A stretch of 64,000 nt of DNA from a virus, in IMG/VR virus record IMGVR_UViG_3300032323_002909, positions 32,001-96,000 of that record. The stretch is one strand, 5' to 3'. The notes below the pieces were generated by a model that was not told the origin of the DNA, did not search any database, and was given only the letters and a program-made list of their open reading frames with translations. Positions 7,672 through 47,487 of this stretch are shown in pieces. The stretch's first letter is position 1, and every line of letters begins with the position of its first letter. A program made the translations under genes and the position numbers.

Positions 7672-8475
7672 ATGAACATAAATATCAAAGAAAAGAGGTT
7701 GTATATAGTAAGAAACCTAATTAATGGGAAGGTTTATGGCGGCAAGCACTACTGGAGTCCTGATACCAAATATATGGGTTCTGGTTATGCGCTGAAAAAA
7801 GCTTTTGAAAAGTATGGTAAAGAAAATTTTAAAATTCGTTGGTTAAAATTGAAAATAAAATCTTCGGAACATTTAGATCAATTGGAAATACGAATGATTC
7901 GTTTATTAAAACACATTTTTAGAAACAGATGTTACAATATTCAAAAAGGTGGATGTGGTGGTTACTTTACTTATTACATGAGTGATATCGAAAAACAAAA
8001 AGTTTTTAGAAAAATTAGTGAGGGTAAGAAAAGGCAATATGCAAATGGGTTTACAGAAGAACAATTGTTGGGGCATAAAAAAGCCAATCAAAGTAAAAAA
8101 CATAGAATGGACAACGATCCAGATTATTATAATGCCGTTTATATTAAAGGTAATGAAAAAAGAGTGAACTCTTTAAAAGAACGTAGAAAAGCACTTGGTT
8201 TAACTCAAAAAGAAATTGATAGACATAAAGATTTGATAAAATATAGTCAGAAAATAACTACTTATAAAATATTATATCCAAATGGTTTTGAAGTTGTTGA
8301 GACTAAAACTATCACAGAATTCATGGAAACTTATAAAACTGAATATAATATTTTTATAGATGCTAGAAGAAATGGTAAATTCGTTTTTAAACGTAGAACT
8401 TCGATGACTAAACATCCTTTTCCACCAAATACTGAATTGTATATTATAAATGAAGTTCGAGGATGTGATATATAA
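7672..8475 (+). CDS. GIY-YIG (Seg-like) free-standing homing endonuclease
   Basis: LYIVRNLINGKVYGGKH..YMGSG..LKKAFEKYGKENF..E..YNI..GG; inserted in opposite orientation downstream of gp23. Confidence 0.85.
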   Translation: MNINIKEKRLYIVRNLINGKVYGGKHYWSPDTKYMGSGYALKKAFEKYGKENFKIRWLKLKIKSSEHLDQLEIRMIRLLKHIFRNRCYNIQKGGCGGYFTYYMSDIEKQKVFRKISEGKKRQYANGFTEEQLLGHKKANQSKKHRMDNDPDYYNAVYIKGNEKRVNSLKERRKALGLTQKEIDRHKDLIKYSQKITTYKILYPNGFEVVETKTITEFMETYKTEYNIFIDARRNGKFVFKRRTSMTKHPFPPNTELYIINEVRGCDI

Positions 8476-8562: not shown

Positions 8563-10068
8563 TTATAAATATGTCGAAACCGAACCAGGTGTAAACGCAG
8601 TACCGAGACCTTTAACGATGATCAAATGGTAGTAAAGATTAGCACCGAAAATGTTATTCACGATACCATAGCGGGTCATAAGACCAACGCGAGGCGCGAA
8701 ATCATTTGGGCCAATCGTTCTTTGCACCATAATGGGGATATATGGGCAGTAGATAATACCAGTGTCATAGTATTCAGAACCTTTGTAACCCAACAGAGCA
8801 TACTCAACACCATTTCCACCGTTAGGCGAATTCGTGTAGGAGTTATTGTTTCTGTAGAGAGTAGTGTTCTGAACTTCAGTCCGAGTATCACGATAAACCG
8901 TCCAGCGGCTACCAACAGTACCAACTTTCGACACACCTACGCCAGCCGTGGAAACGGTTCCACCAACTTCAAATACTTTGAAGTCAGGAAGCATTTCAAG
9001 GATGCTGCATACACGTGGGGTGGCGATAACAAAGTTAGCAGCACCTCTACGGTTACGAGCAGCCATACGACCACTTTCGATGAGCAAGCGTTGATAGAAG
9101 GTAAGATTTCTTTCAGCAGTCCAACGACCATCCGCACTAACAGGGCTCCAAATGGAGAAACCTGCGCCAGCCCCAGCATTGAAGGCTGTTTGGATCATGC
9201 GCATCACAACTTCACGGTCGATTTCGGCTTGGATCTCATACGACATAGCATTCGTAAGTTCACCATCGATATCGATACCGTTCATGTTTTTGATGTCTTG
9301 CTCCAATTCAACCGACCAACGAGTAGCCAATCTACGTGTTCCAGCAACAACAGCGGATTTGTCGAACTTCAACTCGATTTGAGGGATTTTGCCCGTCAAT
9401 TCGTAGTTATTCAGAAGTTCAGCAATACCACGGTCTTGATCTGCGAAGCTCCAATGTTCGGTATTACCCGAAAGGAAGTTCGAAGACGTGCCAGTAAAGC
9501 GTGTATCCAGAAGTTGATAACCAAGTTCGTCACTAGTGGAACTAGTGTCATTCAACGAGGGGAGTCCAGCAGCATCAGATCCAGTGTAGGCAGCTTTTAA
9601 TTGTTCTCCAAACGAAGAACCGTTACCACCACCAGAAGGCTTACCGTCGATACTACCATCGCTCAGAGTATCACCTTGGTAGGCGTAACGAAGAGCAAAA
9701 GCAAGACCAACAGGTCCACCCATAGGCTGAACACCAACGATTTCGTTGGAGATCAATTCAGGGAAAGTGCGTCGAATCATAGGAATCAGAATCTTTGGAA
9801 GACGAGCATCGCCAGTAGCATAGCTATCGCTGTTAGCGATGCCATTACCGACACTACCAGTCGCACCAAACACGCCACCAGAAGCAGCAATGTTAGATTC
9901 TTGAAAGCACCACTGTTCTTGGTTCTCCAAAAGCATAGCGGTCGTTTTGTAAACGTGCTCATTTTGGATAGCAGGAATCGAGTTCGAGCTATAGTCCAAA
10001 ACTTTGCGCCATTTATTAACGGCTTGTTGCATTTTTGAAGTGTTTATATCAGATTGTGGGATATTCAT
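8563..10068 (-). CDS. gp23: major capsid protein
   Basis: LLENQE, IRRTFPELISNEIVGVQPMGGPVGLAFALR, WSVELEQDIK, EIQAEIDRE, YCPYIP, TRYG. Confidence 0.97.
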   Translation of the reverse strand: MNIPQSDINTSKMQQAVNKWRKVLDYSSNSIPAIQNEHVYKTTAMLLENQEQWCFQESNIAASGGVFGATGSVGNGIANSDSYATGDARLPKILIPMIRRTFPELISNEIVGVQPMGGPVGLAFALRYAYQGDTLSDGSIDGKPSGGGNGSSFGEQLKAAYTGSDAAGLPSLNDTSSTSDELGYQLLDTRFTGTSSNFLSGNTEHWSFADQDRGIAELLNNYELTGKIPQIELKFDKSAVVAGTRRLATRWSVELEQDIKNMNGIDIDGELTNAMSYEIQAEIDREVVMRMIQTAFNAGAGAGFSIWSPVSADGRWTAERNLTFYQRLLIESGRMAARNRRGAANFVIATPRVCSILEMLPDFKVFEVGGTVSTAGVGVSKVGTVGSRWTVYRDTRTEVQNTTLYRNNNSYTNSPNGGNGVEYALLGYKGSEYYDTGIIYCPYIPIMVQRTIGPNDFAPRVGLMTRYGIVNNIFGANLYYHLIIVKGLGTAFTPGSVSTYL

Positions 10069-10127: not shown

Positions 10128-11012
10128 TTACTTTTTAAACGTCATCGATTCGAGAGCGCTTAAATAAGGATCGTTTTCCTCTACTTTATTACTTACTCTT
10201 TCCGTAATAATTTTTTGAGTTTTTACAAAATCAGGCTTGTGTTTGCGGTTTTGTAGAGCTTGCTCCTTAATGATTTCCAATTGCTTCTTCTCTTGATTTT
10301 CAAAAAGACGCACGGTGTAATCAAAGTTTTCTTTGATAAATTTAAGAGATTTATCAGAAAGTGCTTTTTGGACGAAGTTTTTCTTCGACTCAGGGAACTT
10401 AGAAGTTTTAGCTTCGAGGAAAAGTTTAACTTGTGCGTTGTTCTTTTCTTCGGTAAGCAAGTTCAGATTGTTTTTAAGTTCAGCATTTTCTTTGCGAAGT
10501 TGATCCATTTCAGTTTTACCTTCAATGATTGCACCAGACAAAGATTTGTCCATGAGTGCATAGTCAATCGAGAATACTTTACGAAGATTTTCCAGAACTT
10601 TGAAAGCGGTTTTATTTTTAACAGCCGTTTCTAAATCTTTTTTGGGAAAAGACTCAACCAAGAATGTGTCGAGATATTCACTAATAGATTCAGTAAGTTG
10701 TTTTTTGAACTTTACAAGATCACCTTGTTGTTCTCTTTCATACTTTTTAACAACTTTAACAAGTTTAGCAGTCTTGTCTCTATCAAAAGCTTCCATGAGT
10801 TTTTTCATTTTCACAGTGCGGTCGTTATCAAGCGTGACCATGAGAGTTTTCAATTTTTCAGCATAAACTTCATCCTGTTCTAAAAGTGCTGATTCTACTG
10901 CTAGATCAATTTTACTTTCTAACGACTCTTGGATGGCTTTGACCGATTCATCGCTCAGACCCAAATTTTTTTGAATTTCTTCAGAGAAAAGATTCTGTTT
11001 GTTTTTCTTCAT
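10128..11012 (-). CDS. gp22: prohead core scaffold protein
   Basis: Coiled-coil, E/K-rich, SEYLD, C-terminal DPYLSAL; directly upstream of gp23. Confidence 0.8.
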   Translation of the reverse strand: MKKNKQNLFSEEIQKNLGLSDESVKAIQESLESKIDLAVESALLEQDEVYAEKLKTLMVTLDNDRTVKMKKLMEAFDRDKTAKLVKVVKKYEREQQGDLVKFKKQLTESISEYLDTFLVESFPKKDLETAVKNKTAFKVLENLRKVFSIDYALMDKSLSGAIIEGKTEMDQLRKENAELKNNLNLLTEEKNNAQVKLFLEAKTSKFPESKKNFVQKALSDKSLKFIKENFDYTVRLFENQEKKQLEIIKEQALQNRKHKPDFVKTQKIITERVSNKVEENDPYLSALESMTFKK

Positions 11013-11047: not shown

Positions 11048-11374
11048 TTAGAATAAAGGTTTTTCAATTTCCTGAGAAATTAATTTTTGAAGTTTATTAT
11101 TGATAATATTTGAAAGATGTTTTTGAGCATCCGCATGATGTTCGCCCAAAATACATTCAACGAATTTAAAAATTTCTGAAGATTCTTTCACGCATTTTTT
11201 GCCTGTCTTTTCTTCATTATCCATATCAGCATCTTTCTTACGTGCATAAGAACCTTTACCTTTTTTTGGTTTTTCGACTTTGGTTGCAGGTGCGAATCTT
11301 TTACGCTCCTTTACTTTAGGAGCTTTGATAGTCACCTTTCCATCTTTTTTAAGATCTTTGAATTTTTTATTCAT
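11048..11374 (-). CDS. gp67-like prohead core protein with N-terminal basic ArfA-like segment
   Basis: Lies between gp21 and gp22; C-half FVECILGEHHADAQKHLSNIINNKLQKLI resembles the gp67 helix; N-half contains VEKPKKGKGSYARK. Confidence 0.55.
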   Translation of the reverse strand: MNKKFKDLKKDGKVTIKAPKVKERKRFAPATKVEKPKKGKGSYARKKDADMDNEEKTGKKCVKESSEIFKFVECILGEHHADAQKHLSNIINNKLQKLISQEIEKPLF

Positions 11375-11390
11375 AATATTATTTATCTTA

Positions 11391-12053
11391 TTAAATCGAA
11401 TTTATGAAATTGATGATTTGTTGACGCAAATAATTATCCATATCTTTTCTTGGAAGTTTGCTAATACCTTTTTCAAAATTCTCATATACCTCTTCAAAAG
11501 AACCATCATGCTCGATGACGAAAGTTTTAGATTCCAAAATGCCATTCACAAATGCTTTTGGATAAGATGGATCTGCTACTGCATCGATAGCTACTAAGTG
11601 CATATTTTGCACGAGATTATAATCTCTATTTTCAGATAATTGACCAAGTGCTCTTGTTGACATACCAATTTTAACACCGTCATTTATAAGAGATCTTAAA
11701 ATTTGACCAGTTGGTGTAGATAAGACACGGGCTTTGCCTACAAAATAATCATCCACTTCAGTTAATTCTGTCACCAAATGACAAGCTCTTTCGAGATTAA
11801 CATCGGCACTAGCAGGGTGATTCAACTCCCCCATAGCTCTACCTGGAACAACCATTTCATTAATATATCTCTGAACTTCGCTTCTAGTATCATCCAACTT
11901 ATACATCCTTTTATTTTTGTTTACGATATTGCAACCAATAAATGGTCCTTTGACGTAAAGATTGGATGCGCTGTTTCTATTCGATTCCTCGCGAATAATT
12001 TCAAAGTTATCGAAAACGTCAGGATTTTCTGCTATCAGCTTTAATTTTAACAT
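11391..12053 (-). CDS. gp21: prohead protease
   Basis: NKNKRMY, AMGELNHP, TPTGQI, GMSTRALG, DAVADPS. Confidence 0.95.
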   Translation of the reverse strand: MLKLKLIAENPDVFDNFEIIREESNRNSASNLYVKGPFIGCNIVNKNKRMYKLDDTRSEVQRYINEMVVPGRAMGELNHPASADVNLERACHLVTELTEVDDYFVGKARVLSTPTGQILRSLINDGVKIGMSTRALGQLSENRDYNLVQNMHLVAIDAVADPSYPKAFVNGILESKTFVIEHDGSFEEVYENFEKGISKLPRKDMDNYLRQQIINFINSI

Positions 12054-12086: not shown

Positions 12087-12551
12087 CTAATTTAATTCTT
12101 TTTCGGTTATTATAATAAAATCCATATCATTTTTTTTCGCAAATTCTTTAGCATACTTCCATTTATCACAATTATTTCTCCAAGCTACTTGCTCATAAAG
12201 AAGATTTGATTTCTTTTTACCACGTGTCGCCTTGGGTTCTTGCGTTTGTTTATATGGTTTTACTTCTATCAAATATTTTTTTATATTAGATCCCTCTTTT
12301 ATTTTAACGTAGGCATCTATGAAATATTTTCGATTTTTATTTTGAACCGAATCAAAATATGGAATAGCGATTTCCTCACTATTCCATTCCAAAACATTTG
12401 AGTTATTATCAGCCCATCTAAACAATTTTAATTCCAAACCAGAACGATAAATTATATTATCTAATTTACCCACGTATTTTTGTGGAAATTTTGGATTGTA
12501 ATATCCCTGATAGAATTTTTTATTTCTTTTAGATAATCCTAAATTACCCAT
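12087..12551 (-). CDS. gp4: head completion nuclease (TnsA-like)
   Basis: PQKYVG..IIYRSGLE..W.SEE..IPY..YFID..IEVKP..KW..A..F.IITEKEL. Confidence 0.9.
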   Translation of the reverse strand: MGNLGLSKRNKKFYQGYYNPKFPQKYVGKLDNIIYRSGLELKLFRWADNNSNVLEWNSEEIAIPYFDSVQNKNRKYFIDAYVKIKEGSNIKKYLIEVKPYKQTQEPKATRGKKKSNLLYEQVAWRNNCDKWKYAKEFAKKNDMDFIIITEKELN

Positions 12552-18430: not shown

Positions 18431-21400
18431 TTATCCTATTATTTCAGTTTCAATATAACTACCTGCTAAACAAGTAACAGTTCCAGTTCCCGCATACGCA
18501 TTCCAGTTAAAATTTGTTGTGCCATTAACTAGAGGTTTTAAAATCATTTCGACTTCTATTGTTTGGTTTTGATTAGCTGCAGTATTTGCTATCCCTAGTA
18601 CGCTGAAAGGATTGGCTGATACTAGAATATTGTTAGCAATAATACCACCACTTCTCTTTAACAAAAGCAAACCAAATTCACTATTCACACCGCCAATGCC
18701 AGCAGCTACTTGAGCACCACCAGCACCCACCACTTGTACAAATAACTTGATTCTATATATATTTCCTGTTAAGAGCGGAAGTGTTAATACAGGGTCAATT
18801 TGCCCAGCAAGAGTAGGCGTAGATCCAACAGCACGAACTAAATCTACTGTTCTTATTGCCCGTTGAATGCCAGCTAATGATAGAAATGTATATCCTGTGC
18901 AGTCACTCAGCACACCATTATTAATAGTTGGATTTGTCAACGTTAAATTCGGAGCCAACTTAGCACTCGTTACACTACCATCACTTGGAATCAACTCCCC
19001 GACTTGTAGCGTATTTGTTGGTGCTATTACTACTGCTTTTGCTCCACTTGCTAATGGATCGGTGAATATGATATTTCCAGCACTTAAAGTATAGTCAACG
19101 CTTGGTTCTTGTAATGCACCATCAATAGCAACAATAAGTGCTGATGGATTGGTTAAGCTACCAGCACCAGAAAGTGGAAATGATGAAAGAACACCATTAC
19201 CAGTAATAGTTGTTCGTGTAGGTGTAACTACAGTAGCAACTCTATTGCCATTTGAATAGATATCACCAGCAGACAAGTTTCCAGCACTGACTGTTCCATT
19301 GATAGTAACATCGCCAGTTACATTAAAACCTGATAGTTCGTATTGTTTGATATCAATTACTGTGATATTAGCAGAGAGAGCATCGAGATGGTTAGTAAAG
19401 ATTCTATCAGCAGAAAGTGAACTAACCGAGAGTGTTTTAGTATTACGCCAGACACCACTTAGAGCATCGTATGATAAAACATCACCACCAGATAAGTTAG
19501 TAATTCTTACATTGTGAAGTTCATCGATCTCATAACCATTATCAACCTTAACAAAGATCTTACCTTCGTTTTGATGAGCATATACAACAAAACCAACAAC
19601 TACTGTATGATTAGGTGCTTGTGGTTTGATATTAGTGAGTCTACCAGCAGTGAATGGTGATAGGAATAATACATCACCATCGATCCATGTTTCACCTTGA
19701 AGGCTACCAGTAGTGTTAATTTTACGAACAAGACCGCTTGTTGTAACGAAGCCTTCTTCATTTCTTACAATAGTTTCTGTTACCAGTCCAAGTGTATCAA
19801 CACTATTCGGGTCATTATTTGCTTGTGCTAATACAACTGCTAGTCTCTGACCTTGAGCACCTCCTTCAGCAGTAGATCTAATTCTTACTACACTATACTG
19901 TGATTCTAGTAAATCAGAAGCAGTTTTATTAACAACTCTAGCAATAGACTCCTGACCGAGTTGAAGCGTAACATTTCCACCCTTTAATCCAAGATCAAGA
20001 GTACCATCCGTATCATTCCATGTAAGTCTACCAGGTCTTGATGATAGTGCTGTATTGGTAGTGAACTGGATACTTTCAACATTTAAGTCGCCACCTGAAA
20101 CTCTACCACCACTTAAAGCTGTGATTGAGCCATTAACAATCAAGTTGCCGTTCATGGTTCCTCCATCTTGGTATTGAGTAGCGTTTGTTCCACCGCCACT
20201 AGCATATACCGCAACGTATCGTCTTAAATCCGTTTTATAATTTTCAAATTTATCATGGATTTTTTTATTCCATTCTTTTTCAATAGCATCCCAATCTTTT
20301 ACAATTTTTTCTTTATTTTTAGATTCTATTATATATTCAACAGGTTTTTCATTTTTAAGCTGTCGAATTTCTGCTAATAAATTATCTCTACTTTCTTGAA
20401 ATAAATTTTGAAAATATGAACGTGCTTCGTCGGTAATATCTAAAGTTTCTTCTTTGATATTTTGTATTTTATCATCGAAATAGCCAATTACTTCTTGCTC
20501 GGTTTCAGCAATTTTCTTTTCTAAATTTTCATTTATTTCGATAATTTTCTTATCTACATTACCAACTCTAGATAGAGCTTTTTGAACACCTTTATTAATG
20601 GTGTTGTTCAATTCTATATTAGAATCTCTAATAGTATCAATTTCTCTATTGACTTGCTCAAGTAAAGATATATCAGCTTTTTTATCTAATTTTTTATTTA
20701 AATTTTTATCAATTGTTGATACTTTATCAACAACATCAGATGCAATACTACCAAGTTTTTCTTCTAACTTGTGGGTTATATTCTTTTCGTAAAGTTCTTT
20801 TACTAATTTTTTAATCGTAGTATCAAATAATTTGGAAGAATCCTCAAAATTATTTTTTAATGATTCTCTTAAAGAATTACTAATATCTTGAATTTTGAGA
20901 TCGATTCCATCACGAATCTCTTTAAATCTATCATCATTTTCAAAAATAATATCTTTTTTAATTTTATTTGAAATCTTGATAAATTCTTCAACTAAATTTT
21001 CACGAGATTCACTTAATACTTTTTGAAGCGCTTTCTGTCGTCTGACACTTTCATTTTTAATATCTTGAATTTTTTTTAATTTATTCTTTTCTAAAATTTC
21101 TAAAGACTTCTTAGTAGCGTCTTTTTTAATTTTATTAATCTCTTCGATGATTTGTTGTTTTTTATTATCTACTACATCATCATTTTTTATTGAAAATGAT
21201 TCTTCGATTGTAGTGATTATTTCATCCTCCTCTACATTTTCTTCAATTTTGTCTAAAATGGAAGAGGGATCGGAACTCGGATTAAAATATATTTCTTGTT
21301 TCCCTTTTATAAGGACAAAGGGATGTTCAGCAGAAAGATCATCGTTTTCAACGATAATAGAAACAATCGGGTTTCCATTGTCTTCGGAAACCTTCTCTGC

Positions 21401-21529
21401 TACATATTTTCTACCGTTTATCTCGACCTCATAAACACCGAAGAAAATTTCATCAAAATTTTCAACTTGTAAGATGTTGAGAGGGGAGTTAGACGAGGTA
21501 TAATTGACCTCTTCGCTAAACAATCTCAT
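18431..21529 (-). CDS. long coiled-coil plus fibre protein (fibritin/whisker- or tail fibre-like)
   Basis: About 440 aa E/K-rich coiled coil, a GGGT hinge, then beta-fibre domains (WNDTDGTL, ELHNV, VAIDGALQEP..DYT). Confidence 0.65.
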   Translation of the reverse strand: MRLFSEEVNYTSSNSPLNILQVENFDEIFFGVYEVEINGRKYVAEKVSEDNGNPIVSIIVENDDLSAEHPFVLIKGKQEIYFNPSSDPSSILDKIEENVEEDEIITTIEESFSIKNDDVVDNKKQQIIEEINKIKKDATKKSLEILEKNKLKKIQDIKNESVRRQKALQKVLSESRENLVEEFIKISNKIKKDIIFENDDRFKEIRDGIDLKIQDISNSLRESLKNNFEDSSKLFDTTIKKLVKELYEKNITHKLEEKLGSIASDVVDKVSTIDKNLNKKLDKKADISLLEQVNREIDTIRDSNIELNNTINKGVQKALSRVGNVDKKIIEINENLEKKIAETEQEVIGYFDDKIQNIKEETLDITDEARSYFQNLFQESRDNLLAEIRQLKNEKPVEYIIESKNKEKIVKDWDAIEKEWNKKIHDKFENYKTDLRRYVAVYASGGGTNATQYQDGGTMNGNLIVNGSITALSGGRVSGGDLNVESIQFTTNTALSSRPGRLTWNDTDGTLDLGLKGGNVTLQLGQESIARVVNKTASDLLESQYSVVRIRSTAEGGAQGQRLAVVLAQANNDPNSVDTLGLVTETIVRNEEGFVTTSGLVRKINTTGSLQGETWIDGDVLFLSPFTAGRLTNIKPQAPNHTVVVGFVVYAHQNEGKIFVKVDNGYEIDELHNVRITNLSGGDVLSYDALSGVWRNTKTLSVSSLSADRIFTNHLDALSANITVIDIKQYELSGFNVTGDVTINGTVSAGNLSAGDIYSNGNRVATVVTPTRTTITGNGVLSSFPLSGAGSLTNPSALIVAIDGALQEPSVDYTLSAGNIIFTDPLASGAKAVVIAPTNTLQVGELIPSDGSVTSAKLAPNLTLTNPTINNGVLSDCTGYTFLSLAGIQRAIRTVDLVRAVGSTPTLAGQIDPVLTLPLLTGNIYRIKLFVQVVGAGGAQVAAGIGGVNSEFGLLLLKRSGGIIANNILVSANPFSVLGIANTAANQNQTIEVEMILKPLVNGTTNFNWNAYAGTGTVTCLAGSYIETEIIG

Positions 21530-21567
21530 CTGTAATATTTAGTAAAATGATACGAATGTCAAGTAAT

Positions 21568-22530
21568 TTATCTTTTCATATCGGTATATTCTTTTCGACT
21601 CAACGGTATATATTCTATAACATCACCATGTTTGAAACAATGTTTACTATTCGACTGTCTTTTTGTCGTATGGGTATATACTTTTTTTAGTTTATATAAA
21701 AACAAAGATGATGCGTTAGTTTTATTTATGAACTCTGATTCATTTAAATAAATATCATAAAATATTCCATTAACAAGCAGTTTGAAGGGTTTTGATATAG
21801 GATATATGTAATCATCTCCTTTAATATCTTTCAATTTTTTATTTTTTCGTGGATGTTGATAATCCTTTGAATATATTTCATTAAATTTTTTACCTTTTCT
21901 AGGGTCAACATAGTTTGGATTGTTGGTTCTTTCTTGTATAGTTTTTCCTTTTTGTTTCTCGGATTGTCTCGCGAACGATGCAAGTTCTTTTTCGGTAAAT
22001 CCGATGGTGACAATTCGTTCGCGTTTATTCGCCGCTCTATTAAGTTCTTTATCGGTGAATAACCTCATCTTCAACCTATTTCTAAAGTTGTCTTTGCCTT
22101 TTTTTCTATTTTCGGGAGTATTCATAGCGGCAACACCTTTAATCCTCGCTATTTTTTCAGCATCGGATAGCCCATATTTAGCAATTCTTTCTTTTATAGA
22201 ATTTGCGCGTTTTATTTTAGCAGTATGTGTTCTAAATCTAGAAGTATCTATATTAGCATCTTCGATTATTAAATTCGCAAACTCGTCAGATTCCACAATA
22301 TTCCACATGGTCGAATACTTTTTACCCTCTTCTGATATCACCATTCTATCGTCCGATTCTTTCAATATTATCGTGTGAATATTTTTACCATATTTAGCAA
22401 TATGTTTTTTCCAAAGTAATCCCGATCCATTATATTTAAAACAAGACAACTTTTCGCCAAAATGATAGCACAGGTATTTCAAACCAGTAATTTCATGCTG
22501 TTTTAATAACAAATAGTGTTTTTTACTCAT
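21568..22530 (-). CDS. putative homing endonuclease (divergent GIY-YIG)
   Basis: HYLLLKQHEITGLKYL..YNGSG..WKKHIAKYG..WNIVES.EFANL; basic repeat C-terminus similar to that of 7672..8475. Confidence 0.75.
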   Translation of the reverse strand: MSKKHYLLLKQHEITGLKYLCYHFGEKLSCFKYNGSGLLWKKHIAKYGKNIHTIILKESDDRMVISEEGKKYSTMWNIVESDEFANLIIEDANIDTSRFRTHTAKIKRANSIKERIAKYGLSDAEKIARIKGVAAMNTPENRKKGKDNFRNRLKMRLFTDKELNRAANKRERIVTIGFTEKELASFARQSEKQKGKTIQERTNNPNYVDPRKGKKFNEIYSKDYQHPRKNKKLKDIKGDDYIYPISKPFKLLVNGIFYDIYLNESEFINKTNASSLFLYKLKKVYTHTTKRQSNSKHCFKHGDVIEYIPLSRKEYTDMKR

Positions 22531-22568
22531 TTATATATTTAATGAGTAAAGGTGAATTTGAAAATTAC

Positions 22569-23711
22569 TCAACTTACTAACATAAGCGGTGGATCATAGT
22601 CACCGAAGCCACCATCCATCAACAATTCTTCCAAAGTCTTTTTCTCCTCGATACCCTCAGACAATATCGTTTCACCATTTAAAGTGCCTCCACCTGGTAA
22701 AGATACCCCTGTAATTTTAGTGAGAATACGACCCCACATTACCTTTGACAGTGCGGTGGCGTATTCCAAAACCCATTTTTCTTTGATCAAATCTCTCAAT
22801 GGTTTTTCAACATAACATGTCAAGAGACCATAGAATTGCGTATTTCTTGGTTGAGGAATCAAGCGTAAATATTGCGTTCTCGAATCAAAATAAATATCCC
22901 TACGAGTAGCAAACATTTTTTCTCTCGTATCGATCCAATCTTTTACTGTGTGCCAAGACAGAATATCAAAACCATAATTACCCAGAGAATAAGCATGGAA
23001 AGATTGTTGTGCCATTGTTTGTTCTACGGAGAATAGAGTGTTGACACCAGTTGTTGAACCTTCTTCAAACGCGATAACATCGATTACTTTACGATAATCC
23101 ATAACATCATAATCAAACATATTATTGAATGCTGTGACATCTTCTTGCGGCTCACACTGCACTGTAAAAGGTTTTTGATAAGATTCTTTGAAATAAACAC
23201 TCAAAGATGGGTTGAAATCAATTAATAAATCATAGGTTGTTTTGTCTATGATTTCCATTGTTGTTATACCTTCTGATGGCACAACCGAACTCAACGAAGA
23301 CGAAGCACTAAAATAAGAATTGGGTATCGTGGACAGAGAAATATACAACGATTCAGGTCTTTTGATTTCAAAATCTGGTTGTGGTCCTTGTCTTTTATTT
23401 TGTAATTTTTCAGATGGAGTGTAACCAGAATTTGCTACCGTGAATAATGTGTCTAATCTGATGCCTCCGTTTTTATCATAAATTCTACTATCAAAAATCA
23501 AATATTCTTTTGAATAACCAGCATATTTGGTATACATATCTAGAGCCATCGATATAGCTTCGTGCAATTGGTCGTAGTGCAACTCAACATTAATCATTGG
23601 ATGTCCCAACATTCTAAGGATTCTTTCACCCAATCTCTGATAACATTCTATTTTAGAATTCAGATTGGTTGACATGAAAGCTGAAATTGGCTCTATTTGG
23701 CATAAACTCAT
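22569..23711 (-). CDS. gp13: neck protein
   Basis: ILRMLGHPMINVEL..Q, WVLEYATALSKVMWGRILTK..LPGGGTLNG; start moved to ATG 23711, after TAAATA. Confidence 0.9.
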   Translation of the reverse strand: MSLCQIEPISAFMSTNLNSKIECYQRLGERILRMLGHPMINVELHYDQLHEAISMALDMYTKYAGYSKEYLIFDSRIYDKNGGIRLDTLFTVANSGYTPSEKLQNKRQGPQPDFEIKRPESLYISLSTIPNSYFSASSSLSSVVPSEGITTMEIIDKTTYDLLIDFNPSLSVYFKESYQKPFTVQCEPQEDVTAFNNMFDYDVMDYRKVIDVIAFEEGSTTGVNTLFSVEQTMAQQSFHAYSLGNYGFDILSWHTVKDWIDTREKMFATRRDIYFDSRTQYLRLIPQPRNTQFYGLLTCYVEKPLRDLIKEKWVLEYATALSKVMWGRILTKITGVSLPGGGTLNGETILSEGIEEKKTLEELLMDGGFGDYDPPLMLVS

Positions 23712-24741: not shown

Positions 24742-26562
24742 TTATCCAGGAGCGGTTTCACCAGCAGGTGCTTCGGGCGTTTCAGCGGGTTCTGTTTCAG
24801 CACCAACATCAGTACCTTCTTCACCACCAAGTGTAGCACCAGAGCCACTAAAATCAGGAGGCATTCCACCGCCACCCATGCTGCCACCCATTTCGCCTCC
24901 ACCCATTTCACCGCCACTTTCAGCGGATTGAGCAAGCATTTCTTTCCAATTCGGACCGCTAGATTTAATCTGTTCGATTTCGAACATGAATTCGGCTTCG
25001 TTTCGTAAAAAGTGACGATTTGCCAAGATATCAGAATCTTTCCAATCTAGATATTTTTTCATGGCAAATGTGGTCGATACTAATTCGTTGTTTGATATAT
25101 TATTAAATGTGTCTATTTTGAGATTAAGCTTTTGACTTTCTCTCATATCATAGAAATTAGTAGGAACATTGAATTCTATTCTAAGATTATCATCGAATAG
25201 ATCATTTTCATCAAACATTTCTTTGAATTTTAAATGAGTAATAAATGCTCGTTTAATACCTTGAGCAAATCTTTGTTGTTGACGAATAATCATTTTCGCA
25301 AATTTTAATTCTTCACGAAGCATTTCTGTGCCGTCACTATAACCTGTCTCATTGTTCAAACGAGAAGTTGGAGTTTTCAAAGAACGATAAAGCTTTTTAA
25401 TAAACCAATCTAAAACATCAAGATTTCCATCTGATGGTTGACCACCAAATGTTTCGACTGATGTTCCTTCCTGTCCTTGCCTTTTAGCAAACCAAAAGGA
25501 ATCCAAGGTGGATTGTGGTGCATATTTCTTAACAATGTCTCCTTGGTCGATATCAAAAGTCTTAGTTGACCAATATTGGGATTGTAGCTTGCGTAGGTAT
25601 GCTTCTGCCTGTGGGACTGGCAACTTACCCACATCCACGTTAAATAAGAAACGCAACGGCGCATGTACCATTCTATGGATAACCACAGAATCTTCGATCA
25701 TCGATAATTGCCTGTATGCTCGTCGGCAATTCTCGACAAATGGAATTATAAAATCTTTGGTCTCATTATATTGACCACTGTTGATATAGAGAATCTGATT
25801 CTTTTCGAAAGGAATATATTCATATTTTTCAACTTTTCTATTATCAACAGCTGAAAATATTGGCTTTTTATAAATAAAAGCTTTGACCAACATAGTTTGA
25901 ATGTTGTCATATACTGGGTCGAATTGATCAGCGGGTAGATTTTTGACAGCAACTACGCCTTGTTTGATATAATCATCTTTCAGAATCAACTCGAAAAATA
26001 ATTCACCTTCAATTAAAAATTGTCGAAAATAATGCCACCCATTATCTTCCAGTTCCAACATCGCCACAAATTTGGAAAATTCTTTTTGTAGCTCTTCTTT
26101 TTTCTCCGAATCTAATTCAGCGTTTTTAAACTTAAGTGTTACAATTTCACCATTTTCATCGACATTAATAGTTTCGTCACAGATTTCATCTAATGCATCA
26201 GAAACTTCCGAGAACGCTGCGATCATTCTATAATCTCTCAAGCGACCAGGTTTTTCCTCTGATGCTTGGGAATACATCAAGTCAGTAAAAGTTTTATCCT
26301 GATAAATCGCAGAAAACGCAGTGTTGTTCCAATCATTATTAAGCGCTACAGAGTTTCTTGCTATAGCTTCGGGTTTACGCATCCCGATTTTTTGGAAATG
26401 CTTATATTTAGCATTTTTAGTTTCGTCTATATTTTGTTCAGCATAACCATTACGATTTTTCAAATAAGACTGAACATTTCTGTCGAATGTAGATCCCCGT
26501 CCATCACTTCCGACGAATGATCTATTTTGAGATTGTGTAGATGAACTATCTGCTCCAGCCAT
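24742..26562 (-). CDS. gp20: portal vertex protein
   Basis: YRMIA..EVSDALDEI, QLSMIEDSVVIHR..AP.R..F.VDVG.LP..AEAYL, FWFAKR, LYRSLK.P.SRL, REELKFAK. Confidence 0.95.
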   Translation of the reverse strand: MAGADSSSTQSQNRSFVGSDGRGSTFDRNVQSYLKNRNGYAEQNIDETKNAKYKHFQKIGMRKPEAIARNSVALNNDWNNTAFSAIYQDKTFTDLMYSQASEEKPGRLRDYRMIAAFSEVSDALDEICDETINVDENGEIVTLKFKNAELDSEKKEELQKEFSKFVAMLELEDNGWHYFRQFLIEGELFFELILKDDYIKQGVVAVKNLPADQFDPVYDNIQTMLVKAFIYKKPIFSAVDNRKVEKYEYIPFEKNQILYINSGQYNETKDFIIPFVENCRRAYRQLSMIEDSVVIHRMVHAPLRFLFNVDVGKLPVPQAEAYLRKLQSQYWSTKTFDIDQGDIVKKYAPQSTLDSFWFAKRQGQEGTSVETFGGQPSDGNLDVLDWFIKKLYRSLKTPTSRLNNETGYSDGTEMLREELKFAKMIIRQQQRFAQGIKRAFITHLKFKEMFDENDLFDDNLRIEFNVPTNFYDMRESQKLNLKIDTFNNISNNELVSTTFAMKKYLDWKDSDILANRHFLRNEAEFMFEIEQIKSSGPNWKEMLAQSAESGGEMGGGEMGGSMGGGGMPPDFSGSGATLGGEEGTDVGAETEPAETPEAPAGETAPG

Positions 26563-26592
26563 ATTTATTATTTAAGGACAATTACTAATATT

Positions 26593-27675
26593 TCAATAAG
26601 AACTTACCCATGCAACTTCATTCGCAGTGATAAATACAGCATTTCCATTAAAATTGTTAAAATAGTCAGCACTGAGTGATATGGATGCCACATTATTATC
26701 TATTGTAGTGATCACATTATCAGGTAATTTGTAAGCAGATATGGTAGGGGACTTCACAGTATCGATTTCAACATAATTTAATTCAGGTATTGACGTGTTA
26801 GCACTCAGATACCATGTATTATTATAATTTAGATTTTTACCATAAAATGTAAAAAATTTATCATTCAAATCTGAAACCACTAATGGACTTTCCCGAGGAT
26901 TACCATTTATAAAATAATTAGTTAAATCTGGATAAGCACCCACTGAAAGTGATTCAGTCTGAACACCGATTGCGCTGATAGAATCAAATAGATTATAATC
27001 ACAAAATCTGTCACTGACTGGAAGTGCATGAAAGTCTGCATTTATTTTATAAATCGGAGATTGTTTAGGATTATCATAGTTTTTGAATAACCAACCCTTG
27101 ATAGTAAAGTTTGTTTCGGCAGAAATTCTCCATTTTACATCTGGTGATAGATCTTTTGGATTATTGTAACTTATATTACCAGACCATTGAATTTCAGAAC
27201 GGATTTCGTCTAAAAATGGTAAATTAAATTTTTCGGGGAATTTCCAAGATACTATAATATACGGATTACAATTTACCACGAAATTTTGAATAATTTGATC
27301 TAGATCTTCTTTGAAATAACAAATTATATTAACGTTCAATTCTAAATTAACTGGTATGGGAGTCGGTATTTTCACTAACCCATTATTAACATCTAGTTGT
27401 TTTCGATATAAAAATTGATCTTTGTTTTGTATACGATTTGCGTCTCTACTGAGACTTGTTTGTTCTATAGTAACAACAGGAAGTGATAGAGTTTTGGCTC
27501 TATCACTCAAGTCTTGAAGCACTCTATGCTTCGGTCCGTGGACGTATCTTACCTCTATTTTTTCTTTTTCAACTCTAGTTCTCGCATCATATCGATACAG
27601 AAAAGCATCATCAAAAGCAGATACGAAGAGATTAAGGAGTTGAGAGTTTTCAAAAAAGTATGAGTAATCGTTCAC
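26593..27675 (-). CDS. gp15: tail terminator/sheath stabiliser with C-terminal extension
   Basis: F.SAFDD, V.Y..GPK, LSLP, P.PVNL..N..I, QIIQN, FTIKGWLF. Confidence 0.8.
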   Translation of the reverse strand: MNDYSYFFENSQLLNLFVSAFDDAFLYRYDARTRVEKEKIEVRYVHGPKHRVLQDLSDRAKTLSLPVVTIEQTSLSRDANRIQNKDQFLYRKQLDVNNGLVKIPTPIPVNLELNVNIICYFKEDLDQIIQNFVVNCNPYIIVSWKFPEKFNLPFLDEIRSEIQWSGNISYNNPKDLSPDVKWRISAETNFTIKGWLFKNYDNPKQSPIYKINADFHALPVSDRFCDYNLFDSISAIGVQTESLSVGAYPDLTNYFINGNPRESPLVVSDLNDKFFTFYGKNLNYNNTWYLSANTSIPELNYVEIDTVKSPTISAYKLPDNVITTIDNNVASISLSADYFNNFNGNAVFITANEVAWVSSY

Positions 27676-27698
27676 ATAACTATTTAGTCGTATGTTGA

Positions 27699-28847
27699 TT
27701 AGAAGAATCCAATTTTACGCTCTTCAAATGAGTTAGCAACGCTGGTCACTTTTTGGTGATTGAATAATTCAGCCAATGTCATTTCATTATCAACTTCGAT
27801 GTCTAGATTACAGTGGTCTGCCAATCGTTGACACTCTGATATACTAAGTTTATCAAATTTGTATTCCATGAATAATCTTCCTTTGCGAAGGAGTGCTGGA
27901 TCAATTTTTGTCAATTCACAATTAAACGTGCAGATGACTTTCATTTTCATCGAATCTTTCAAAAATCCATCGGTAATACCGAGTATATTCTGAGTACCAG
28001 AATTTCTATCAACTGATAAAATTTCTTCAGCATCTTCAATCAATAATACACTACCTTGATTGTCTAGCATAAATGAGATGAACGATGGTTGTGAAATCAC
28101 AGAAACCATAGAAGGTGGAATATAAATAACATCATACTTGCATTTGGTAATCAAATTTTTAATAAAATTAGATTTTCCAGTGCCTGGTAAACCGTGTAAT
28201 AACAGCAGATTTTCAGTATCATCTAATGTGACAAAGTTCAACATTTTATCATATGGAAACTTATCACCATAATACAAATCATATCTATCATCTAGAATTG
28301 GAATATCGTTGAATGATGTTTTTAATTTAGTCAACCCTTGGCTATTTTGCGAGATCATATAAAACTCTTTTTGAGTAGAATATTCAAATATAATATCCAA
28401 ATTCAAAAATTCATTCAAGAAATTTAAAATTTTCTCTTTATTTTCCAATAGTGGAGTAAAGACAATAAGTATACCTTCCGAGTCACGAGGAGTCTCAAAT
28501 TCAAAAGGTATAATGAGATTATCAGGAACAGGAGAAGGATTGATAGATATTGATATCAACATCGAAAAATCATCATTGAAATAATGTCCAAGTTCATATT
28601 CATGAATGTTATATTGTCTAACAGTATTGAACGCATGCTTTTTAAGAAACTCATGCAATTTATGAATATATTTTTCAGATATCGAATAATTTTTTATGTG
28701 TATCGATGTCGATGATAAATTACCATATTTTTGCTCAAACAATGATGGATATTCCGATTGAAGAGTAAATGGTTTCACAACATCGACCCAATAAATGTTA
28801 TCGAGACATTTTAGTATTTCTTGTATATTATTAATCATATTTTTCAA
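27699..28847 (-). CDS. AAA+ ATPase
   Basis: Walker A GLPGTGKS, Walker B LLIEDAE, CTFN, IDPALLRKGRL. Confidence 0.9.
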   Translation of the reverse strand: MKNMINNIQEILKCLDNIYWVDVVKPFTLQSEYPSLFEQKYGNLSSTSIHIKNYSISEKYIHKLHEFLKKHAFNTVRQYNIHEYELGHYFNDDFSMLISISINPSPVPDNLIIPFEFETPRDSEGILIVFTPLLENKEKILNFLNEFLNLDIIFEYSTQKEFYMISQNSQGLTKLKTSFNDIPILDDRYDLYYGDKFPYDKMLNFVTLDDTENLLLLHGLPGTGKSNFIKNLITKCKYDVIYIPPSMVSVISQPSFISFMLDNQGSVLLIEDAEEILSVDRNSGTQNILGITDGFLKDSMKMKVICTFNCELTKIDPALLRKGRLFMEYKFDKLSISECQRLADHCNLDIEVDNEMTLAELFNHQKVTSVANSFEERKIGFF

Positions 28848-46448: not shown

Positions 46449-47036
46449 TCATGGAGTTCGTCTAGCAGTTTTTTTAGCAGTTTTTCTAGCAGTTTTTCTA
46501 GCAGTTTTTTTGGCAGTTTTACTTGCGGCAGGTGTTGCGGTAGTAGCTGATCCATCAGCTGGTAGATAAATACCGCTATCATCATCAACATCATACATTC
46601 TTCTTCTATCTGGTCTTAAAACAAATTTAATTTGTTTTTCCACATCATCATATTGCACAATTGCTCTTGGCTCATTGAATCTTCTAATAATTATAGGTTC
46701 ACCATCATCATTAACCCCTTTTACACCAACATCTAACGCCCAGTGTGTTTTACCGCCGCCGAAATTTCTAATTTTTTTAGGTTTAGAGTTTTTGGTTGGA
46801 ATAAAACCCATTTCATCGATCCAATCAAGAATAATTTCTTCCGTTGTCTTACCCGCTTGTTTTATTGCACCGCTGGCAAGTTTAATATTTTTTCTAATAT
46901 TACTAACGTTTTGGTAGGTTTGAGGTAAAGCTACTTTGGTCAATTCTACAGCACCTTGTAATGCTTGTTTCCCAGTCTTCTTAAATGAATCCCAAAATCC
47001 TTCATCAAGTAATTCTTTTTGTGTGTGTTTATGCAT
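46449..47036 (-). CDS. hypothetical protein with histone H1-like basic tail
   Basis: N-terminal LLDEGFWD; C-terminal KTAKKTARKTARKTAKKTARR. Confidence 0.65.
   Translation of the reverse strand: MHKHTQKELLDEGFWDSFKKTGKQALQGAVELTKVALPQTYQNVSNIRKNIKLASGAIKQAGKTTEEIILDWIDEMGFIPTKNSKPKKIRNFGGGKTHWALDVGVKGVNDDGEPIIIRRFNEPRAIVQYDDVEKQIKFVLRPDRRRMYDVDDDSGIYLPADGSATTATPAASKTAKKTARKTARKTAKKTARRTP
46461..46520. repeat. 12-bp tandem repeat (about 5 copies) encoding KTA(K/R)
   Basis: TAGCAGTTTTT(C/T) units. Confidence 0.85.
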
Positions 47037-47487
47037 TGGCTTGTAAATTTTGGTCTGCTACATTATTCAATGCTACATCGATAAGAGCATTGAGTTCATC
47101 TTTGATGAAACTTTTTCCTATTAAAACCTTATGATCGTTGGTGGCACGATTCCCAATTGAAAACGGAACACTGTTAAATTTTTTACCGCCGATCATACAA
47201 TCAAAAAGACACACAGGTCTTTCTACAGTATTACCTTCGCCGATATTTATGGTAATGGTATCTTCAACATCTTTTTCTAAACGAATAGAATTCACTGTTG
47301 TGAATCTTACTATTTTTTGGTGTGTGTTTTTATCTTCGCCCATTTCTAAATCTTCTCCATGTAAAACGTTATGCGCTCCATTACCTGTATCTAATTTAGC
47401 TGGAATATTACCGACACCATCGATGTTAATATCCTCGACTAATCCTAGAATATTTTTTTCAACGAAAAATTGTTTGAAACTTATCAT
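47029..47487 (-). CDS. retropepsin-like aspartic protease (RimK-associated/ATP-dependent Zn protease family)
   Basis: G..E.I, AKLDTGN, E.RP, F....R....VLIG..F. Confidence 0.8.
   Translation of the reverse strand: MISFKQFFVEKNILGLVEDINIDGVGNIPAKLDTGNGAHNVLHGEDLEMGEDKNTHQKIVRFTTVNSIRLEKDVEDTITINIGEGNTVERPVCLFDCMIGGKKFNSVPFSIGNRATNDHKVLIGKSFIKDELNALIDVALNNVADQNLQANA

Follow-up and report, generated by a model that had tools for sequence, protein, structure and literature searches.

An ArfA-tail module in the predicted disordered arm of a putative head-core carrier protein of a T4-like virus

The locus

The window analysed here is a DNA stretch of 64,000 nucleotides, positions 32,001-96,000 of the IMG/VR virus record IMGVR_UViG_3300032323_002909 (150 kb, approx. 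73% complete, 34% G+C), and the feature coordinates are counted within this window. Between the genes of a gp21-type prohead protease and of a gp22-like scaffold candidate it contains an open reading frame (ORF) of 108 amino acids, whose product joins a segment homologous to the tail of ArfA, the bacterial factor A for alternative ribosome rescue, to a predicted helical hairpin, and which may act as a carrier of this segment in the head core. The product includes RKRFAPATKVEKPKKGKGSYARKK, and the ORF ends in an ordinary TAA stop codon (11048-11050). The gene and its parts are as follows.

11048-11374, minus strand: putative head-core carrier protein with the ArfA-tail arm, 108 amino acids (from the ORF list and the sequence)
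11183-11374, minus strand: N-terminal arm, residues 1-64, predicted to be disordered, strongly basic (24 Lys+Arg, 10 Asp+Glu), ending in the Glu of the putative cut site
11231-11284, minus strand: ArfA-tail module, residues 31-48, TKVEKPKKGKGSYARKKD, aligned to ArfA Q27-K44 (RF2-pairing strand and mRNA-channel loop)
11180-11194, minus strand: putative gp21-type cleavage site C61-V62-K63-E64|S65 at the border of arm and helix, directly before the predicted helices
11051-11182, minus strand: helical hairpin, residues 65-108, with PLF at its C-terminal end; putative carrier domain for anchoring in the core, resembling gp67 in shape and register

The ORF is a small gene adjoining gp21 in the head cluster, and a late-type promoter motif precedes it. 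Its surroundings are these.

11391-12053, minus strand: gp21-type prohead protease, the presumed processing enzyme (Pfam Peptidase_S77, E 5.7e-28; PHROG 207, head maturation protease, E 1.7e-52)
11380-11385, minus strand: T4-late-type promoter-like TAAATA, 5 nucleotides ahead of the ATG, inside the gap of 16 nucleotides after the gp21 stop
10128-11012, minus strand: gp22-like scaffold candidate, 294 amino acids (position between the ORF and gp23, composition, length and sequence kept in relatives)
8563-10068, minus strand: gp23 major capsid protein (Pfam Gp23, E 1.4e-82; putative maturation site WCFQE|S)

The sequence in front of the ORF reads ...GATAAATAATATT|ATG, and TAAATA was also found 5 nucleotides before the starts of gp22 (TATAAATAATATT|ATG) and gp21. 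The gp22-like protein gave no family match, and its identification comes from position and composition; its length in the relatives ranges from 284 to 295 residues. The gp23 of this virus is approx. 32% identical to that of the nearest cultured T4-like phages. In every relative examined the order gp21-X-gp22-gp23 was invariant, X being the 108-residue ORF or its homologue. An earlier note, made from the letters of this DNA alone, had placed a late head gene between gp21 and gp22. The gene order, the TAAATA motif and the synteny of the relatives bear this out, and by its sequence context the ORF is a late head-cluster gene in a conserved slot.

Homologues of the 108-residue protein were obtained in 47 clusters at 90% identity, while an exhaustive profile search returned 682 representative clusters at E<=0.001. 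A search of 50,697 phage records by tblastn and blastn brought up no relatives, either for the gene or for the head cluster; the sole match was arfA on a Salmonella contig.

Similarity to the ArfA tail

The Pfam ArfA model (PF03889) matches the 108-residue protein with 26.6 bits (E 4e-6; gathering cut-off 25.5), and the match covers residues 31-47 and positions 25-41 of the 44 of the model only. A six-frame search of the whole 150-kb record gave the same single match (27.9 bits), and among 14 control genomes searched in six frames E. coli alone exceeded the cut-off. An independent hidden Markov model (HMM) was built from 30 diverse ArfAs of Pseudomonadota. They were sampled by a phylum-wide family search of 401 genomes, 37 of which carry ArfA; this search replaced an earlier sample, drawn from the relatives of Salmonella ArfA, which had given Enterobacteriaceae only. 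The true ArfAs of these 37 genomes reach from model positions 1-13 through 41-44 and score 34-93 bits. With our HMM the 108-residue protein scored 27.2 bits, while the maximum among 20,000 composition-preserving shuffles of its basic N-half was 9.5 bits. Comparison of the phage family with the ArfA alignment by hhalign gave a probability of 95.9% (E 5.7e-9) over 18 columns, in which T31-D48 correspond to ArfA Q27-K44.

The ArfA-tail segment belongs to the best-conserved parts of the head-core family, and the Pfam model is matched by 39 of the 42 orthologues. The window protein has the loop K38-G-K-G-S-Y-A-R45, which is invariant or nearly so, with the same Y/F alternative, in the 39 orthologues that keep it. 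In a column comparison, for which the sequences were picked by the presence of the core motif, K-G-K-G-S-[YF]-x-R was fixed or nearly fixed, with x free, both in the bacterial ArfAs and in the head-core proteins, and the two families have V-E four and five residues upstream of the loop. Since a generic DNA-binding arm would tolerate exchanges between Lys and Arg and would not need the Gly, Ser and Tyr/Phe residues, the shared position-specific constraints argue for more than such an arm. Judged by these comparisons the ArfA likeness is a true homology-grade similarity and more than a basic stretch. The ArfA-like motif reported in the earlier note is thus confirmed by Pfam, shuffles and hhalign together, and two of the checks which the note had named for it, HMM comparison with the ArfA family and conservation in the orthologues, gave a positive result.

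In three orthologues (P0047, P0041, P0046) KGKGSY is lost or degraded (…EKSKKAYDRKK…, …SPKSGKGSYKR… and …KKGKCSKVPKK…, respectively), while the GPxVKERKxF block, the cut site and the hairpin are kept. They can be regarded as natural 'tail-minus' controls. A circular permutation of ArfA, suggested by the C-terminal ...EIEKPLF and the ...LLHDPLF of ArfA, was also considered and rejected. It scored -0.8 bits with our HMM, inside the shuffle range, and the likeness of EIEKPLF is taken as chance; gp67-like helices too end in aromatic or hydrophobic residues.

ArfA (YhdL; PF03889; PDB 5H5U, 5U4I, 5MGP, 5MDV) is a rescue factor of Beta- and Gammaproteobacteria. Its residues 1-14 and the helix 15-24 (with A18) activate RF2, F25 sets the RF2 specificity, and Q27-E30 form a strand added to the RF2 beta-sheet; the basic loop after this strand obstructs the empty mRNA entry channel and touches rRNA via redundant positive charges, and the KH motif occupies a pocket of the channel (PMC8012679). 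The RF2-recruiting strand Q27-E30 aligns to T31-K-V-E34 of the phage protein, in which V and E are conserved at 54% and 85%. Upstream of T31 neither the Pfam model, nor our HMM, nor hhalign gave an alignment to ArfA, and in an ungapped extension the positions of the hydrophobic helix 15-24, A18 and F25 fall on K, E and R residues. The KH motif is not matched either (K77/H67 in bacterial ArfA; A/T and F/V, then an acidic run, in the head-core family). Since the match is limited to strand and loop, the segment is, as far as the alignments go, an ArfA-tail module and not a complete ArfA. The ribosome rescue suggested in the earlier note is not supported as stated, because ArfA residues 1-26 and the KH motif lie outside the match.

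The two proteins differ in further respects. The phage protein has 108 residues and a normal stop codon, whereas ArfA is a product of 55-72 residues made from a non-stop (RNase III-cut) mRNA. The tail of the phage form is part of a late head-cluster protein and is followed by a putative protease site and a helical hairpin. The head-core family occurs in T4-like phages, while ArfA is nearly absent from bacteria outside the Beta- and Gammaproteobacteria (PMC11633108).

The arm and its putative cleavage site

In the AlphaFold2 model, computed from an alignment of 42 sequences, residues 1-65 are without secondary structure (predicted local distance difference test, pLDDT, 45-72), and the hairpin consists of helices 66-76 and 80-104 (pLDDT approx. 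90). A BFVD fold search with this model had no match better than E 2.6, which is unsurprising for a disordered arm with a two-helix hairpin. Two blocks of the arm are conserved, GPxVKxRKxFAP and the ArfA tail. At its N-terminus the protein reads MNKKFKDLKK (consensus MGKTYKDLKK), which is similar to the front half of a capsid-targeting sequence (CTS); the full T4 CTS leader M-K-x-[FY]-x-x-F-h-x-E (h, hydrophobic) was not found, there being no h-x-E in the first 20 residues of the 108-residue protein. A possible kinship between the arm and T4 gp68, whose basic tail looked similar (RERNAF versus KERKRF), was rejected, since hhalign gave E 0.52 and a different region.

At the border of arm and helix most orthologues have hydrophobic-x-E|S, sometimes with N in place of S, in spite of differing flanks (CVKE|S, LTE|S, FDE|S, LKE|S, LDE|S, LNE|S, VEE|S). 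T4 gp21 cleaves after L/I-x-E (PMC9026906). The C-h-x-E-S word of the window protein recurs in gp23 (WCFQE|S, conserved in the relatives) and in two CTS-like leaders (M..F.KYYCLRE|S). In gp23 the sole hydrophobic-x-Glu site is that of Glu57; no other Glu lies between it and the conserved PMIRR core, and the spacing to this core is T4-like. The placement of this site against T4 LTE|A by MAFFT is uncertain, as the stretch is of low similarity, so WCFQE|S is taken as the putative gp23 maturation site by the position of Glu57 instead. The genome has 7 words of the type C-h-x-E-[SAGT], which is unremarkable by a rough estimate; their weight thus lies only in their positions, at the gp23 propeptide border, in two N-terminal leaders and at the arm/helix border. 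Cleavage by gp21 after Glu64 is well motivated by these sequences, and we infer it in agreement with the earlier note, in which VKE|SS had been likened to a gp21 site. A second cut site at V21-K-E23|R was rejected as a general one, since its Glu is Asp or Gln in several orthologues.

Leaders of the T4-CTS type were seen on several genes of the genome: MLTFQKYYCLRE|S, MISFEKYYCLRE|S, MLPNFKRYFELYCE|S, MKSFKNFYTE, MKKFDKFFDE and MISFKQFFVE. The genes which carry them lie before the window (record positions 20993-21364, 21369-21794, 21809-22960, 25110-26624 and 27516-27740) and at 47029-47487 of the window (minus strand), and most of them have TAAATA just upstream. These leaders point to a sizeable set of packaged, possibly ejected proteins.

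The hairpin and its relation to gp67

The C-terminal F108 is invariant in the family, P106 and L107 nearly so. Neither Pfam GP67 (PF17634) nor DUF7216 (PF23853) was matched at E<=10 by the C-terminal 45 residues or by the whole protein, and no match to them was found anywhere in the record. With hhalign the hairpin aligned in the expected register to residues 3-32 of T4 gp67 (E 0.012, probability 3.6%) and to residues 3-38 of cyanophage DUF7216 (E 9.7e-4, probability 22%, 36 columns); the latter matches Pfam GP67 itself weakly (E 0.023).

T4 gp67, DUF7216 and the 108-residue protein are all small head-cluster proteins encoded beside gp21, they appear to share an N-capped amphipathic helix (FIEAI..N.A.A.K.L) in the same register, and all have hydrophobic-x-Glu sites, T4 gp67 being cut by gp21 (PMC9026906). 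The helix is C-terminal in the 108-residue protein and N-terminal in gp67. The architecture of gp67 and DUF7216 is a helix with an acidic tail, whereas the arm appended here is basic. The gene order also differs: it is 20-67-68-21-22 in T4, with gp67 before gp21, while the 108-residue gene follows gp21. As to the gp67-like helix claimed in the earlier note, the slot, the size and the helix pattern agree, the register is the expected one at low hhalign scores, and the family matches are absent. The hairpin is gp67-like in these respects, which is weak support for kinship, and it is not a demonstrated member of the family.

Exchangeable arms and ArfA-like modules in other viruses

In many of the 682 clusters the hairpin (…KFI.AI..KNYA.A.KYL…PLF) is retained together with the cut site, and the arm differs. 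The alternative arms comprise one of no more than a few basic residues (67 amino acids), a DUF3008-like type, KDYDGDGK, CWxGY…VPNC, and several of these combined. Two arm variants were looked up; both are in the slot Peptidase_S77 - X - approx. 290 amino acids, and the contig long enough to show the downstream gene continues into Gp23. The same hairpin is thus seen with differing arms, or almost none, in the same slot, which fits a carrier-plus-cargo arrangement.

Most orthologues have a CWxGY…K.KGGK.VPNC module between the ArfA tail and the cut site, which the window protein lacks. Proteins with the module in tandem behind a T4-type CTS leader (MKTFKQF..E) also occur (P0142, P0171); one example is gp34 of Paraglaciecola Antarctic GD virus 1, a cultured T4-like phage (MW805361.1, 21163-21630; L242). 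Its position behind a CTS leader fits the internal-protein type of cargo, and suggests that CWxGY is a widespread cargo module of internal proteins.

A scan of IMG/VR for back-translated PKKGKGSY gave at least 116 stretches, and 80 loci were read (L123-L202; examples are L123, L144, L165:9257-9610 and L183:3790-4449). Among the matches listed, approx. 50 of the 80 were free-standing mini-ArfAs of 33-70 residues (…NP[IV]AK.L..P.[FY]K.KVVKPKKGKGSY.RK), in approx. 17 the module is joined to a conserved C-terminal domain rich in Gly and Lys, and approx. 7 belong to the head-core family. By sequence, viral contigs commonly encode ArfA-like modules, both as mini-proteins that stand alone and within other fusions. 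The fused C-terminal domain (…NEAGNYTKP.MRK.LF.RIKAGGKGG.PGQWSARKAQ…) has no Pfam match; a third module type among the matches listed reads IPWNTG.R.H.PKKGKGSY, and one mini-ArfA weakly matches Pfam DUF7230. The mini-ArfA loci examined lie amid non-structural genes (e.g. methyltransferase, oxygenase) or beside the small terminase subunit.

The mini-ArfA alignment matched bacterial ArfA with a probability of 98.2% (E 3.7e-14) over ArfA D13-K44. The head-core family matched the mini-ArfAs with 96.6% (E 6.3e-10) in 29 ungapped columns, the per-column confidence being low upstream of T31. Both have the ...V-x-K-P-K-K-G-K-G-S-Y-x-R-K tail. The mini-ArfAs retain NP[IV]AK..L..P.[FY], a homologue of ArfA D13-F25, whereas the head-core form has tail and strand only and is tethered to the predicted core-anchoring hairpin. 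The mini-ArfAs are a likely source of the head-core module. The hosts of phages RXM and HTVC027P are Alphaproteobacteria. Citromicrobium phage RXM g10 is annotated as ArfA (PMC8953757), as is gp30 of pelagiphage HTVC027P, which is expressed early and late (PMC12753301).

Discussion

The reading we favour, to which we give a probability of about 0.5, is that of a prohead-core protein made of carrier and cargo: the hairpin anchors it, gp21 frees the arm, and the ArfA tail docks in the empty mRNA channel, where occupying would be more likely than rescuing. The hairpin (residues 65-108) would fix the protein within the scaffolding core while the head assembles, like T4 gp67 or a capsid-targeting sequence. 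The fixed gene order, the late promoters of the genes, the in-register hairpin and the lack of any other gp67/DUF7216 gene in the record argue for such a role in the head core. A gp21-type protease would then cut after Glu64 (C-V-K-E|S), giving a disordered peptide of 64 residues with a net charge of approx. +14, whose residues 31-48 correspond to the RF2-pairing part (Q27-E30) and the 30S mRNA-entry-channel loop (K31-K44) of ArfA. The freed peptide may stay with the packaged DNA and be ejected into the next host, or may leak into the infected cell at head maturation. It could dock on ribosomes with an empty mRNA channel, either vacant ones or non-stop ones left after mRNA or tRNA cleavage, and occupy or mark them in competition with tmRNA-SmpB, mRNA or host factors. 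Since the region which activates RF2 in ArfA is not present, occupation or marking is more likely than rescue of the ArfA type.

This proposal, made from sequence, resembles the logic of the T4 internal proteins IPI-III and Alt, in which a short targeting element attaches to the core, gp21 cleaves at h-x-E, and the basic cargo so released inside the head can be ejected with the DNA (PMC9026906, PMC9958956). Leaders of the CTS type (MKSFKNFYTE and MLTFQKYYCLRE|S among them) occur in this genome also. The T4 CTS is an N-terminal element of 10 residues, while the presumed targeting element here is a C-terminal hairpin of 44 residues, and the cargo is a disordered peptide of 64 residues rather than a folded protein. 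T4 gp67 is present in approx. 340 copies per prohead (PMC9958956). By inference only, such a dose would be negligible for E. coli and plausible for oligotrophic hosts with few ribosomes.

Several observations weigh against the proposal. The fragments of T4 gp67 and gp68 are thought mostly to escape from the prohead (PMC9958956), so that retention and ejection of the peptide are uncertain and injection is not a given. The acidic run stands in place of the KH motif, the binder of the entry-channel pocket in ArfA (PMC8012679). The conservation of GPxVKxRKxFAP exceeds even that of the ArfA tail, and the block persists in members without KGKGSY, so the arm has a function which does not need the tail. 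Membership of the hairpin in the gp67 family is, from the profiles, not established. The host may or may not have ArfA or a recruitable RF2. All alternative arms found on the carrier are rich in Lys and Arg, which fits a generic electrostatic role.

The last point belongs to the explanation that competes most seriously, a purely structural basic arm which neutralises or condenses the packaged DNA or binds the acidic scaffold, the ArfA-like loop being a reused motif for binding nucleic-acid backbones with no role at the ribosome. It is possible, if clearly less probable than the carrier with a ribosome-docking cargo. T4 gp68 too has a long basic tail and the T4 internal proteins are basic (PMC9026906), the three orthologues without KGKGSY keep GPxVKxRKxFAP and the hairpin, and the loop of ArfA contacts rRNA by redundant positive charges (PMC8012679). 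However, the non-basic G, G, S and Y/F and the upstream V-E are preserved exactly as in bacterial ArfA. The module also stands alone beside methyltransferase and oxygenase genes and is expressed early in HTVC027P (PMC12753301); a DNA-condensing role in the capsid cannot apply to these stand-alone, non-structural and early-expressed cases.

A complete RF2-dependent rescue factor, in which GPxVKxRKxFAP replaces the ArfA activator and nascent chains are released from non-stop ribosomes, which thereby become free for the phage mRNAs, seems unlikely. The conserved TKVE does match the RF2-recruiting strand QRVE of ArfA Q27-E30 (PMC8012679), the mini-ArfA alignment extends without gaps over 29 columns as far as the invariant P19, which has the spacing of the NP of the mini-ArfAs, and the unrelated BrfA and ArfT are examples of dissimilar sequences able to activate release factors (PMC8012679). 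Against this, K, E and R residues lie opposite the ArfA helix 15-24, A18 and F25, the per-column confidence upstream of T31 is low, and both Pfam and our HMM align model positions only from approx. 25 onward; moreover, hardly any bacteria other than Beta- and Gammaproteobacteria have ArfA (PMC11633108), and ArfA is specific for RF2 via F25 (PMC8012679). Far less probable still is a chance match in a low-complexity, Lys-rich region, or an ORF that is not a real gene. The match is indeed short (17-18 residues), its context is rich in Lys, and it lies 1.1 bits above the Pfam cut-off, but the chance reading is already contradicted by the controls: by the gap between the shuffle maximum and the observed score, by the profile-profile E value, by the matches in 39 of 42 orthologues, and by E. 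coli alone passing among the control genomes. The late promoter of the ORF, its conserved synteny and its hundreds of homologues likewise speak for a real gene.

To return to the carrier with its ArfA-tail cargo, a more far-reaching version may be put forward tentatively, well short of even odds. In a T4-like clade the hairpin would be a swappable carrier of disordered cargo peptides, and the ArfA-derived one would be a plug of the 30S channel which, in a few hundred copies, seizes vacant or non-stop ribosomes at the start of infection. Delivered with the DNA, a few hundred copies could be enough to matter in aquatic hosts which grow slowly and have few ribosomes.

Provided that the arm is packaged and does bind the mRNA channel, it would represent a new class of ejected effector, acting on the translation machinery before phage gene expression. 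The ArfA tail would then be a portable ribosome-docking module far beyond the few lineages which bear ArfA, and the head-core hairpin a natural, exchangeable capsid-targeting domain. A capsid-delivered plug would parallel, among bacterial viruses, the viral proteins which obstruct the mRNA channel, and would counteract host defences which cleave mRNA or tRNA. If the arm merely binds DNA, the case would still be a clear capture of a module from a translation factor by a virion protein. It is known that phages bring along tRNAs and tmRNA-like genes as well as ribosomal protein S21 and peptide deformylase. The literature searched contained no report of a virion-loaded ribosome-binding peptide, and free-standing phage 'ArfA' was mentioned at the annotation level only (PMC8953757, PMC12753301).

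Other genes of the head cluster

Immediately upstream of gp21 lies an ORF of 154 amino acids (12087-12551, minus strand). Related contigs have a counterpart of equal length that is listed as Tn7_TnsA-like_N (PF08722), and the position beside gp21 is kept in the relatives (L001, L003, L005, L239). An endonuclease-like gene fixed within a head cluster is unusual. Just past gp23, on the opposite strand, there is an ORF of 267 amino acids (7672-8475, plus strand), whose N-terminus looks GIY-YIG-like by eye (…YIVRNLINGKVYGGKH…) and recalls the segD homing endonuclease beside T4 gene 23.

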